Assembly: GCA_964016885.1 (NCBI GenBank)
Contig: OZ024740.1
Span: 73,408,001-73,472,000, forward strand
Origin: Eledone cirrhosa
Taxonomy: Eukaryota
Length of the DNA: 64,000 nt
Direction of reading: 5' to 3'
In this document: in pieces, positions 43,977-49,182 of the stretch
Numbering within the stretch: the stretch's first letter is position 1
How the letters are laid out: the number at the start of each line of letters is the position of its first letter
Position numbers and translations under genes: made by a program
The notes under the pieces: generated by a model
Seen by the model: the letters and a program-made list of their open reading frames with translations, nothing else
Told to the model about the DNA's origin: nothing
The model's database searches: none

Positions 43977-44116
43977 TTAAAAGTTAACCAAGGTTCAATG
44001 AATAAATCAAAGAATGAATTTTACAATAGATTGGAAGCACTCAACTGTTAGGTTTTACAGAGTTATTAATATTAATTCAAAATATTAACAAAATAGATAT
44101 TCTTGTGATCAAGTAT

Positions 44117-44181
44117 ATTTTATTATACATATTTCAGAGGTACTGAGTTAACTTCAACAGTACGTCCTCATCAGATAAAAT
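44117..44181 (-). ncRNA. Type I minimal hammerhead ribozyme
   Basis: AUUUUAU-CUGAUGA-GGACGUACUG...CAGUACCUCU-GAAAU-AUGU-AUA/AUAAAAU: 7-bp stem I, long stem II, self-complementary stem III. Confidence 0.8.
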
Positions 44182-46018
44182 AAGATGATGCATGACCTTG
44201 ACATAGTAGATGGTTAAGATTCAGTCATGGTAGTGAGTAATATATGACAAAACTCAATATTTATATACCTTAAGATTGAGAAACATGAGAAAAATATATA
44301 ATACATACAATAGAGAGGGTGCGTGTGAGACAGCTTAAAAAATACTTGGCATCAATATAACTGTTACATAATTTAAATTACTGAAGAAAGAGGAAAGAAA
44401 AGAAAAGCATAGAAGAAGAGACAGATGAGGGGATAATATAGTTAGTAGGGGCCTAGAAAAGCAAAAGAGAGTTGATTACAGAGAGAGAGAAATAGGAATA
44501 ACTTGTGTTCAAGTCTTTAGACAATTATCCATATATACAATATATATCTAAACATATCTGGTTGACCGTTAATATTCAAAATATTTAATTTAAGTTAGTT
44601 CAGAGTAATGAATAATAATTTAGGTTTTAAAAGTTAATAGGTACCTGTATTAATTTCTAAAATCAAATTTTATGAAATCAAATTTAAAGGATTTACAAAC
44701 ACGAGAAAGAAAACAATGTTTTTACAACCTCACGAAGGTAAACTTTACCAAATTTATCATATAATGTTGACAACAGTTTATATAATATAATTTAGAAAAT
44801 AATTACCGTTATAATTTTTAAAGAATTTATGATTAACAATTTGAGTGCCTAAAGGATCAACAGGCCTTATAATTAAACTTAAAAAGGTCTGAATTTTAAA
44901 TTACATATATGTGTTTATCAAAAAAAATACACAAAGATTATATTGTCTAAAGACTTAAGATGATACCTTTCAAATATACATAATATAATATAATATAGTA
45001 AATAAGTTACTGAAAATATTGTTAAAAATTAATGTTTTAGATCAATTATTGTAAAAGGATCATTTAATAAATATATACTATAAATATATAAATCAAAACT
45101 TCATGAGTCCTAAGGATAAGGACTAGATACAAAATAAAAAGTGAAAAAAAAAATAATGAATTGTTTGCGAAACATAAAAATGCCCAATATAAAAAAAAAT
45201 ATAGTTTAAAATGCAAGAGGGTTTTATTATATAGTAGACAGGAGATACTTCTAAAATGACCAACGAAGGTGATAGAAAGAGGAGCTAAAAATTTGAATGA
45301 CCCGGAGGTAATCTAAATTTAATTAAAATAAAATAAATAAAATGAAATTAAGTAATAATCATTATATAATTTCGAACATTAAGTAAATATCTAACACTTA
45401 TAACAATAGAGAGTCATTTGAGTATCTAAATTACTTATAAATGTAACTACGAGCATGTTATTATACTGGATAAACATATTTGTTCAAATATATAGAGAGA
45501 GTATTATAGGTATTAGTGAAACGATATACATATAATAAATAAATAAATAATTACAATCATTATTAGTAAAGTTATAATTGTAGTTTTTCCTCCAGTTCAG
45601 TGGAAAGAGAGACCAATATTTATCAACTAGTATGGTTTGTGATATTTATACCTAAATATATATAAAAAAATATATATGTGCAAATCTAACTTTCTGAGTC
45701 CCAAAACATACCCAAAATGAGTAAAATATATAAATGCATGAATAATTTACGGTTCAATTATAACCGGTAATCTTACAAGTTATATATCCAAATTATATAT
45801 TTAAAACAAAGGAACCGAATCTAATTTATAAATGTCTAAAATAATCCAAAGGTGTGCATATTCATCAAGAGAACATGTTAACAAATAATATGTTTATATA
45901 CCTAAGCAGAACCCTTCATTCTAACATTAATTCTATCATAAATGATTAGAAAATAAAGTATTATTAAAGTTTTATAAGCTGTTATAACGTTTTAGGTACA
46001 ACAGTTGATAAGAGACGT

Positions 46019-46287
46019 CAAAAATTAAAACCTGTTTGTTTAGTGTTTTTTTTTTTGACTTTTTGCGAGGATTGGAATGTAGACAAAGCTTTATGAAGGC
46101 AGTTTGAGAATAATTGACTTTTTTTGTTAATTAAGTTTTCATAATTAGTAATTATTAATAGGGTCTCCTTAGTACAGAGGTTGCAGTTAGTTGATATAGA
46201 CGAATTCGAATAGATTCTACTATTACAAAGCTTCGTCCAAAAAATCGAGTATTTTAAATTTTTGTCTTTTGTTTTAAATATATAATT
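46019..46287 (-). pseudogene. C-terminal remnant of a PLE GIY-YIG endonuclease
   Basis: Translates NYIFKTKDKNLKYSIFWTKLCNSRIYSNSSISTNCNLCTKETLLIITNYENLINKKSQLFSNCLHK, i.e. the W...Y...CxLCxxE...LxNxx...CxHK motif. Confidence 0.75.
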
Positions 46288-46652
46288 TGGATATATAACT
46301 TGTAAGATTACCGGTTATAATTGAATCGTAAATCATTCATGCATTTATATATTTTACTCATTTTGGGTATGTTTTGGGACTCAGAAAGTTAGATTTGCAC
46401 ATATATATTTTTTTATATATATTTAGGTATAAATATCACAAAACCATACTAGTCGATAAATATTGGTCTCTCTTTCCACTGAACTGGAGGAAAAACTACA
46501 ATTATAACTTTACTAATAATGATTGTAATTATTTATTTATTTATTTATTATATGTATATCGTTTCACTAATACCTATAATACTCTCTCTATATATTTGAA
46601 CAAATATGTTTATCTAGTATAATAACATGCTCGTAGTTACATTTATAAGTAA

Positions 46653-47721
46653 CTAGCATTAAAGCCCGGCGTCGCTCGGGGTCATTAAGTTACCAAAGTT
46701 AGGTTGCACCACCCATTTTATGTCAGCACTTTTTTGTCTGCCAGGCACTGGGTGAATGAATTGCAGACCTGGAAGCAGGAGCTGCGCCAGCAGTGACAAT
46801 TGTAATTTCGCCTAGGGATATTATCTCTGTGCAAAAAAGTGTTGAAATTTATTGTTTCACAGTACTTGCGCAACACGCGCGTAGACGATGCCAGCCGAAC
46901 AACAGAGCTGCGATGGAGTTGTTCTGCATGATTGTCTGTGTGTTTTCTAAATTTAAGACAGTAGAGAGGGGTGTGGTATGGGGGAGAGTTAGCTGCTGTT
47001 TCTAGCAGGTTTAGTGACCTCATAGAGGATATTATTGTTTATCATTATCTATAAAAGGCAGATTGTTGTTGTTGTGTGTGTGCACATGTTCCATGTTTAT
47101 ACATTTGCACAATTTCAAACCGATTCGACTCAAAGTCTGTAAGAATGCACGTTCGTTGAGAGGTTTTAAAAAAGATTTATCACTTGTTGTTGAATAAATG
47201 TATCTGTTGCTTTTGAATAATTGTCGTTTCGTATGAAATGTAATAATTGAGCAACTAAAAGTTAGTGTGGTTATAAATCACGCACGTTGTTTAATTGCTT
47301 TAAATGTTTTTTTATCATTTGAAGTGAGTGTGTGTTTGTATGCGTTTGTAAATAAATCAGTAAGTTTGAAGTATAAAAGAGAAAGTAGCAAAATGTGTGG
47401 GTTGTAGATAGAGGAAAAAGCAGATGATATGAGAGAGTAAAATGGACAGTATCACCATCAAGCTTGGAAAGAGAAAGTAGCAGAAAGTATGAAGTTGTAT
47501 AGATTTTGAATGGTAGTAGAAAGAGTTTAGCAGTTTAAATGAGAGAGAAAAATCGTAAAATATTGAGTTTTATCTATTTTGGGCGTAATTGTGGGTGAAA
47601 TTGGCAAAATTAAAAAAAGCTATTTCGAATACTGAATTGTAAATTTCAATTGAAGAAATTCTATATCGTAGATTTCTATAACAAAGGAGCATGTCCGCAC
47701 ACTGAGCTTTATAGATTATGA
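46653..47721 (-). mobile_element. Non-autonomous Helitron, 1069 bp
   Basis: Minus strand starts TC(ATAATCTATAAAG) and ends with a CCCG-AGCGACGC-CGGG hairpin, 8 nt, then CTAG. It is inserted between A and T with no TSD. The empty site (taagtaa|tttagatac) is preserved in the opposite palindrome arm at about 45422-45437. Confidence 0.9.
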
Positions 47722-49182
47722 TTTAGATACTCAAATGACTCTCTATTGTTATAAGTGTTAGATATTTACTTAATGTTCGAAATTATATAATGATTATTAC
47801 TTAATTTCATTTTATTTATTTTATTTTAATTAAATTTAGATTACCTCCGGGTCATTCAAATTTTTAGCTCCTCTTTCTATCACCTTCGTTGGTCATTTTA
47901 GAAGTATCTTTTGTCTACTATATAATAAAACCCTCTTGCATTTTAAACTATATTTTTTTATATTGGGCATTTTTATGTTTCGCAAACAATTCATTATTTT
48001 TTTTTTCACTTTTTATTTTTCACTTTTTATTTTGTATCTAGTCCTTATCCTTAGGACTCGAGAAGTTTTGACTTATATATTTATAGTATATATCTATTAA
48101 ATGATCCTTTTACAATAATTGATCTAAAACATTAATTTTTAACAATATTTTCAGTAACTTATTTACTATATTGTATTATATTATGTATATTTGAACGGTA
48201 TCATCTTAAGTCTTTAGACAATATAATCTTTGTGTATTTTTTTGATAAACACATATATGTAATTTAAAATTCAGACCTTTTTAAGTTTAATTATAAGGCC
48301 TGTTGATCCTTTAGGCACTCAAATTGTTAATCATAAATTCTTTAAAAATTATAACGGTAATTATTTTCTAAATTATATTATATAAACTGTTGTCAATAGT
48401 ATATAATAAATTTGGTAAAGTTTACCTTCGTGAGGTTGTAAAAACATTATGTTTTCTTTCTCGTATTTGTAAATCCTTTAAATTTGATTTCATAAAATTT
48501 GATTTTAGAATTTTAATTTGATAGTATACTTTAATATTAATACAGATACCTATTAACTTTTAAAACCTAGAATATTATTCATTACACTGAACTAACTTAA
48601 ATTAAATATTTTGAATATTAACGGTCAACCAGATATGTTTAGATATATATTGTATATATGGATAATTGTCTAAAGACTTGAACATAAGTTATTCCTATTT
48701 ATCTGTCTCTGTAATCAACTCTCTTTTGCTTTTCTAGGCCTCTACTAACTATATTATCCCCTCATCTGTCTCTTCCTCTATGCTTTCTTTTCTTTCCTCT
48801 TTCTCCAGTAATTTAAATTATGTAACAGTTATATTGTTGCCAAGTATTTTTTAAGCTGTCTCACACGCACCCTCTCTATTGTATGTATTATATATTTTTC
48901 TCATGTTTCTCAATCTTAAGGTATATAAATATTGAGTTTTGTCATATATTACTCACTACCATGACTGAATCTTAACCATCTACTATGTCAAGGTCATGCA
49001 TCATCTTATTTTATCTGATGAGGACGTACTGTTGAAGTTAACTCAGTACCTCTGAAATATGTATAATCACAAGAATATCTATTTTGTTAATATTTTGAAT
49101 TAATATATATATATATATGTGTGTATATATATATATAGTGACGAAACATAAGTCAATTGCATGAACTCATAATCCTTTATTT

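Follow-up and report, generated by a model that had tools for sequence, protein, structure and literature searches.

A Penelope-like palindrome in Eledone cirrhosa and the paired 3′ ends of its retrotransposon family

Introduction

The diagnostic features of the Hydra clade of Penelope-like elements (PLEs), together with the motif blocks of Fig. S7, were set out by Craig et al. 2021 (PMC8557442), who describe the Naiads as having an N-terminal endonuclease (EN) and no canonical hammerhead. Inverted, 5′-truncated PLE copies, with a tail often at one end only, are already in print (PMC8557442, PMC3846280). The printed model that we found for such inverted repeats is self-priming (PMC3846280), and how PLEs form tandem or inverted structures is a named open task in PMC8557442. 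In vitro, the Poseidon PLE PAc cuts and extends both target strands, starts at two internal sites between which the tail lies, and is a predicted dimer (PMC11167929). Here, we describe a palindrome in 64,000 nt of DNA from Eledone cirrhosa (assembly GCA_964016885.1, contig OZ024740.1, positions 73,408,001 to 73,472,000; hereafter the window), which its motifs identify as a probable dead, 5′-truncated copy of a Hydra-clade PLE retrotransposon. Taken alone, the locus is a decayed element whose architecture is known, and its value lies in the family-level pattern: a palindrome is the usual product of this Hydra-clade family in Eledone.

Results

The family has two fixed 3′ ends next to (TA)n; the long end lies ~95 nt beyond the short one. 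Exact end matches across the genome number 800 for the short and 564 for the long end, with 0 for the reversed controls, and a rough capture–recapture estimate (13 exact pairs on contig C1; 14 by eye) puts the total at roughly 2,500–3,000 of each end. To avoid choosing copies by structure, ends were sampled in position order on C1, with 40 taken from the first 43 long ends and 40 from the first 51 short ones; those skipped had already been sampled or lay inside another stretch, and 9 skipped short ends belong to known mixed pairs. Two long ends proved internal and were dropped (L087, L105), and L113, which duplicates L112, was counted once. The latter two lie 1.2 Mb apart on C1 with the same insertion junction and near-identical flank, marking a duplicated segment.

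The two ends are strongly paired within insertions. Among 38 long ends, the inverted partner was short-ended in 27, long-ended in 1 and absent in 10; the 40 short ends had a long-ended partner in 23 cases (22 without the duplicated locus), a short-ended one in 1, an ambiguous one in 1 (counted as short) and none in 15. Two-armed structures thus account for 53/78 sampled ends, and 49 of the 52 distinct two-armed insertions carry one end of each kind (binomial p 5e-12 against a 50% ceiling; Fisher p 2e-11). In a separate set selected by the spacer, 17/18 two-ended copies were mixed by eye, the exception being L037. Overlap between arms is typically short (median 109 bp) and exceeds 0.9 kb in 2/49 mixed insertions. 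At 1.74 kb, the window overlap is the longest among the mixed-end insertions examined, and the window copy is the tail of this distribution rather than another kind of thing.

The window palindrome is genuine and very unlikely to be an assembly artefact. Self-BLAST and global alignment recover its arms (Table 1) as reverse complements, at exactly the coordinates given in the original prediction, in two alignment blocks (44069-45431/47721-49106 and 45431-45810/46268-46652). The palindromic part of the 5.1-kb locus is 2 x 1.74 kb only. Across ~1,725 aligned bases, the arms show 27 substitutions (1.6%), along with 10 indels of 1, 1, 1, 2, 2, 4, 14, 14, 25 and 1,069 bp, which provides the arm-identity check that had been called for. 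In a multiple alignment, arm-specific changes are near-equal (15 versus 16), and the two arms differ from each other by 1.8%, compared to at least 2.7% and at least 3.3% from 30 other copies. Six rare variants in 1,700 sites are common to both arms and could be source-specific or reflect gene conversion. Both locus ends abut (TA)n, and the ~95-nt tail (44070-43975) is present on arm 1 only, arm 2 stopping at the short end. The flanking sequence is unlike on the two sides, and the head-to-head junction has a 3-nt (AAA) overlap. None of the listed Logan contigs (X1, X2, X3, X5) or restriction-site-associated DNA sequencing reads (X11) crosses the point of inversion with 31 bases to either side, a result that is neutral on the locus since contigs break at repeats.

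Both arms of one insertion derive from the same subfamily. Five diagnostic sites in the pseudo-long terminal repeat (pLTR) separate at least four subfamilies, some of which have a markedly diverged 3′ untranslated region (UTR; ~80% identity), and the alleles were discordant between arms at 15/167 diagnostic sites over 45 loci, compared to a mean of 47% and a minimum of 28% in 5,000 shuffles. The inner ends of the arms are also non-randomly placed, with 21/98 at −172 to −160 and 3 and 2 in the neighbouring 13-nt bins. This hotspot coincides with a TATA/initiator (Inr) pair (TATATAAA/TCACT), and we infer that it reflects complementary DNA (cDNA) running off the RNA 5′ end at the predicted pLTR promoter. 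One copy (L093:5800-6990) has, between its arms, eight tandem copies of a segment starting at −164 (−164 to −84), as if the enzyme had repeatedly jumped between templates on reaching the RNA 5′ end. Junctions between arms were read at 45 loci, with 8 unscorable, 10 showing exact overlap, 2 blunt and 25 with unmatched bases; the unmatched bases mix real fillers with later mutations, and the junctions as a set are too uninformative to choose a model.

We consider it probable that each of the two nicked strands at the (TA)n target primes reverse transcription from a start site of its own, and that the two cDNAs are joined head to head. The original prediction had instead invoked a template switch or fold-back during reverse transcription. 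In a fuller model built on this, close to the published self-priming one, a long-ended antisense strand would fold on itself and be copied, after which the endonuclease would cut at the AT-rich short site and so remove the tail from one arm or the other. A published proposal has head-to-head PLE repeats arise by self-priming on an antisense template (PMC3846280), and the tail has been ascribed to EN-mediated resolution (PMC8557442). The window geometry fits as well, with the long-ended arm reaching further and a 3-nt overlap at the junction, as do the same subfamily alleles on both arms and the small palindromes at the −165 hairpin (L128). Because the window copy alone also fits a fold-back, the choice of model rests on the family pattern, and this makes a fold-back unlikely. 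The farther-reaching arm of a simple fold-back must hold everything present in the other arm, but the tail lies only on the arm reaching less far 5′ in 31/49 mixed insertions (15 opposite, 3 ties), and 10/49 have no sequence common to both arms. Without trimming, a fold-back therefore fails for the 31; with trimming, it still leaves the 10 without any duplication. Trimming would also place kilobase-loop fold-backs inside a ~80-nt window, since where the short-ended arm exceeds 500 bp, its partner ends between −31 and +47 in 6/11 insertions, compared to the 0.54 that even placement of a fold-back would predict (p 2e-6). Finally, the tail in vitro is the gap between two reverse transcriptase (RT) start sites (PMC11167929), which is not what a trimmed fold-back supposes.

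Other origins for the second arm fare less well. Two separate primings on two RNAs with no fixed partnership, or two independent head-to-head insertions in one (TA)n tract, would draw on the tendency of such tracts to gather insertions: two other elements flank the window copy, and convergent neighbours occur (L135). One insertion with two short ends has alleles discordant at 2/4 sites (L121), and two RNAs would explain the 1.75-kb overlap without strand displacement. Independent choice nonetheless caps mixed ends at the 50% so clearly exceeded here, and independent insertions are at odds with a junction lacking (TA)n and with window arms that are each other's nearest relatives, so we regard this explanation as distinctly improbable; ordered priming on two RNAs from one source is within the best explanation. 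A later inverted duplication of a single copy at the DNA level, by replication fold-back or repair, is highly improbable for the window. Such an event did occur in the family (L037, G000:C4:266693653-266703652), where a 2.8-kb inverted duplication of 1.0% divergence also has a rearranged junction; this is a fold-back at the level of DNA and differs from the way in which the family inserts. The L037 duplication runs ~750 bp into the flank, whereas the window arms stop at the two characteristic ends of the element and their flanks differ. As previously supposed, the inverted copy most likely formed during insertion. Assembling fold-back (palindromic) long reads is a known source of long palindromes, an origin that merits almost no credence here given the evenly split substitutions, the indels, the presence in one arm of an insert whose Helitron ends are proper, the differing ends and flanks, and the recurrence of the same structure in dozens of copies. 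Arm-specific indels and the Helitron had already been cited against an artefact, and that argument holds.

To place the element, the 3.0-Gb genome was searched with the spacer, giving 1,229 candidate matches of which 40 were scored, and 10 kb around each of the 39 scored copies besides the window was compared. These copies have their 3′ part in common and scattered 5′ truncation points. Four of them reach one 5′ end, which defines a unit of 4,409 bp (L055) with a 3′ UTR of ~2 kb; the unit exceeds the usual <3 kb of Hydra elements, a tendency and not a diagnostic (PMC8557442). The earlier description of a 5′-truncated PLE bearing an inverted copy is borne out. Two natural copies (L055, L053) have one open reading frame (ORF) encoding an RT and then a C-terminal GIY-YIG endonuclease. 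The endonuclease lacks CCHH (LVYKCTVKANNITYNYIG has one C, and the second H is absent), the linker has CxCX5C (CNCRNKPDC), and the CxxC and CxH around conserved E and N are visible in the window spacer itself (CNLCTKE..LINKK....CLH). DKT is present (KSDKTNNLY), with RWR instead of RWK in L055. The insertion-in-fingers domain is absent: the RT3-RT4 spacing aligns with homologues without a long insertion and by eye matches the Hydra rows of Fig. S7. Insertion is into (TA)n at both window ends and at the 564 + 800 exact end-(TA)n junctions genome-wide.

A protein search returned 662 homologues at E<=1e-10, nearly all unnamed and with a best identity of 39%; nearly all of the 120 listed cover 92-100% of the query, and the seven that were aligned all carry the motifs. 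Pfam gave no match for protein P0001 and one sub-threshold match for P0002. Based on the C-terminal endonuclease, the hammerhead motif and the Hydra-diagnostic motifs, compared by eye with named reference proteins in the supplement text of PMC8557442, the family is assigned to the Hydra clade. The likeness to Naiad-type motifs suggested originally did not hold, as the endonuclease here is C-terminal and followed by the 3′ UTR, a hammerhead motif is present, and CCHH and DKA are absent.

The features of the locus are collected in Table 1. The spacer consists of the last ~228 bp of the ORF and the first ~229 bp of the 3′ UTR; the family stop codon lies at 46042-46040, and the window copy is frameshifted just before it. 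The minus strand of the spacer encodes CNLCTKETLLIITNYENLINKKSQLFSNCLHK, which aligns to the C-terminus of an RT-EN homologue with 49% identity (E 3e-10) and has no Pfam match. The spacer thus has the length and the GIY-YIG tail first attributed to it, and the minus-strand order of inverted copy, ORF end, UTR, hammerhead and (TA)n is likewise as described. In full-length copies, the tail sequence is also the 5′ UTR directly upstream of the ORF. Read from the sequence, both tail ends have 4-6 nt (ATAT, ATATAT) in common with (TA)n.

Table 1. Features of the palindromic locus, in window coordinates
Feature	Position	Strand	Basis or remark
Left (TA)n target tract	43940..43975	.	TA x18.5
Tail between short and long 3′ end, ~95 nt, arm 1 only	43975..44070	-	5′ UTR sequence in full-length copies
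Arm 1 (main, long-ended copy), covering the distal 1.74 kb of its 3′ UTR	44069..45810	-	
Type I hammerhead motif, complete in arm 1	44116..44182	-	Motif and stems; predicted cut after 44124
Predicted pLTR promoter, arm 1	44232..44267	-	TATATAAA 44267-44260; Inr-like TCACT from 44236; faces outward
Unpaired spacer (457 bp)	45811..46267	-	ORF end and start of 3′ UTR
Head-to-head junction of two copies	46268..46270	.	3-nt AAA overlap
Arm 2, inverted 3′-UTR copy to short end (49104-49106), split by Helitron-type insert	46268..49106	+	
Non-autonomous Helitron-type element, later insertion in arm 2	46653..47721	-	
Predicted pLTR promoter, arm 2	48922..48957	+	TATATAAA 48922-48929; TCACT 48953-48957; faces outward
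Hammerhead motif, arm 2	49007..49067	+	3′ strand of stem I missing via 14-bp deletion
Right (TA)n target tract	49105..49137	.	Sequence; TA matches

The putative hammerhead of arm 1 (44182-44116, minus strand) has an 8-bp stem I, CUGAUGA, GAAA and a minimal stem III, and minimal type I hammerheads are said to work as dimers (PMC4209133). It is not the minimum-energy fold, and a search of Rfam at E<=1 over 40-52 kb gave low-complexity miRNA-type matches alone, all under the gathering scores, and no hammerhead family. The core is kept in 134/156 family arms; the assignment draws on the motif and this retention, and cleavage is predicted.

The insert in arm 2 begins with 5′ TC, ends with 3′ CTAG, has a GC hairpin near its 3′ end and lies between A and T with no target duplication, in keeping with the criteria for Helitrons (5′ TC, 3′ CTRR, a 3′ hairpin and A/T insertion without duplication; PMC8969392). 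Its family has 2,464 candidates in the genome, and of 5 other copies both ends are clear in 3, the 5′ end is merged into (TA)n in 1 and the 3′ motif is unmatched in 1. The window insert and these copies (L151-L155) differ in the number of ~91-bp internal tandem repeats, and several adjoin TA-rich sequence.

Several further repeats surround the palindrome. Adjoining arm 2, an unrelated ~150-bp element with a hammerhead motif (49138-49286, minus strand; CUGAUGA...GAAA, 5-bp stem I) lies between (TA)n tracts; it has 461 candidates, of which 40 scored copies are 93-100% identical along their full length, and probably belongs to another PLE family, either as a 3′ fragment or as its non-autonomous partner. 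Beside arm 1, a ~145-bp element between (TA)n tracts (43795-43940) forms a very stable 64-nt hairpin (−37 kcal/mol, z −8.6); its 2,180 candidates have a fixed length and a variable loop side, resembling a short interspersed element or a miniature inverted-repeat transposable element. Beyond the (TA)n of the short-ended arm of another copy (L090), sequence resembling the 5′ ORF of another Hydra-like family was seen by eye. Elsewhere in the window, 150 of 151 open frames filtered by length and complexity were scanned against Pfam for host-gene domains, and the sole match was the RT of a long interspersed element (LINE) in an open 426-aa frame at 37204-38484 on the plus strand (RVT_1, E 7e-31). 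Two fragments of one LINE C-terminus (49325-49768, plus; 17180-17971, minus), each adjoining or split by (TA)n-type repeats, are ones that we take to be RTE-like. The remaining repeats are 38-bp x25 and 20-bp x98 minisatellites and multi-kilobase (TA/CA) microsatellite fields (4444-5399, 25985-27956, 10840-13714, 15436-16796).

Discussion

Our comparison of family copies provides a rationale for how a PLE might generate a palindrome with two different ends. If it acts as the anole PLE does in vitro, the RT-endonuclease, probably as a dimer, would nick both target strands. The pairing rule suggests that the long site is then primed by one 3′-OH and the short site by the other; each site could offer 4-6 nt of pairing to a (TA)n primer. 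Both primings would draw on RNA of one source element and often on a single molecule. The enzyme that starts at the long site would frequently stall at the short site, leaving tail-only arms, and many cDNAs would terminate by run-off where the RNA begins, at the pLTR promoter (about −167). For the window copy, both enzymes would have travelled a long way into the 3′ UTR (2.3 and 1.75 kb), and this calls for either strand displacement or a second RNA molecule. The cDNA 3′ ends would finally be joined, in the window with the 3-nt overlap, and filled in. Since insertion, each arm has gained ~0.9% substitutions, and arm 2 the Helitron-type element. Whether this extends beyond the family is evenly balanced in our judgement: PLE inverted repeats in general may be the footprint of two-headed integration and not fold-backs, with a dimeric RT-endonuclease giving each nicked strand one start site on one RNA, and strong-stop-like cDNAs ending at the pLTR promoter before being joined.

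Several observations weigh against two-headed integration or narrow its basis. The one-of-each rule is broken in 3/52 insertions (L078, L121 and the ambiguous L139), 2 long-long pairs stand against 14 mixed pairs among the exact matches on C1 (by eye), and 25/78 ends have no inverted terminal partner within ~7 kb. The anchors come from one contig and required exact end matches, and the classes were read by eye from BLAST maps. Exact overlap was seen at only 10/37 scorable junctions, and the long-ended arm of the window reaches further 5′, as a fold-back also predicts. The short arms on the tail side could reflect poor processivity. In addition, the start sites seen in vitro did not differ between the top and the bottom strand and are not homologous to the cut DNA, so that strict pairing is not predicted from them (PMC11167929). 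The clade call, for its part, uses motifs compared by eye. As to precedent, the open-access literature yielded no statement of a one-of-each rule or a two-primer model for PLE inversions, though older PLE papers and figures may show part of it.

The ~95-nt tail separates the two start sites easily, and thousands of genomic copies therefore record the reaction. What this record shows is that insertions almost always have one end of each kind, that some arms consist of the tail alone and that cDNAs stop at the predicted promoter. The pattern gives a sharp prediction for the existing in vitro system, through which an open mechanistic question becomes testable. If two-headed integration is true, the genome holds well over a thousand palindromes in (TA)n tracts, with outward promoters and hammerheads, a few percent of them with kilobase arms like those of the window copy. 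For repeat annotators, such palindromes should be treated as single insertions. No host function is indicated for the locus, and it appears to be under neutral decay because its arms have diverged evenly and gathered indels and an insert. Since the predicted promoters of both arms face outward, a hairpin RNA would need read-through from outside, and the Helitron-type insert would split a duplex into ~385 and ~1,350 bp. The family as a whole is a large source of inverted repeats, which would form double-stranded RNA wherever a host transcript reads through.

Comparison with known systems underscores which parts of this picture are shared. In L1 twin priming, which Ostertag and Kazazian are said to have described in 2001, the second target strand reportedly primes on the same RNA to leave an inverted 5′ part, its primer annealing at variable internal sites with nothing duplicated. 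The 10/49 non-overlapping insertions look alike, whereas both start sites are fixed here and most arms overlap. The Naiads also prefer (TA)n and leave inverted 5′-truncated copies, but they have an N-terminal endonuclease connected to the RT through a CxC domain, CCHH, DKA and no canonical hammerhead. Hydra-clade elements (Hydra-1_Obim, Penelope-13_HM) match the Eledone family in a C-terminal GIY-YIG endonuclease without CCHH, in CxCX5C, CxxC/CxH and DKT, and in the hammerhead and (TA)n targets; Penelope-13_HM is listed with a 5′-truncated inverted copy of 966 nt (PMC8557442 supplement). The Eledone family differs from the clade in its ~4.4-kb unit and ~2-kb 3′ UTR, compared to <3 kb, and in RWR versus RWK. 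Its hammerhead sequence and protein are unlike those of Hydra-1_Obim (2,507 bp), which makes it a separate family, and its tail of ~95 nt compares with the 30-40 nt described for PLEs. The Penelopes of Adineta vaga (Arkhipova et al. 2013, PMC3846280) likewise have head-to-head inverted pLTRs, a one-sided tail, and a TATA and TCACT initiator at the pLTR start, with the motif pair in Pen2a_Av. Their arms are ~200 bp, and they are explained in PMC3846280 by self-priming, whereas the counts here favour two primings. Finally, PAc of Anolis carolinensis (Frangieh et al. 2024, PMC11167929), for which the text consulted does not discuss inverted insertions, has the same two tail-delimiting start sites, cutting and extension of both strands, an AT-rich target and a predicted dimer. 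There, the strands were not seen to differ in start site and the sites lack homology to the cut DNA, whereas in Eledone the ends are paired per insertion and the start sites match (TA)n by 4-6 nt.

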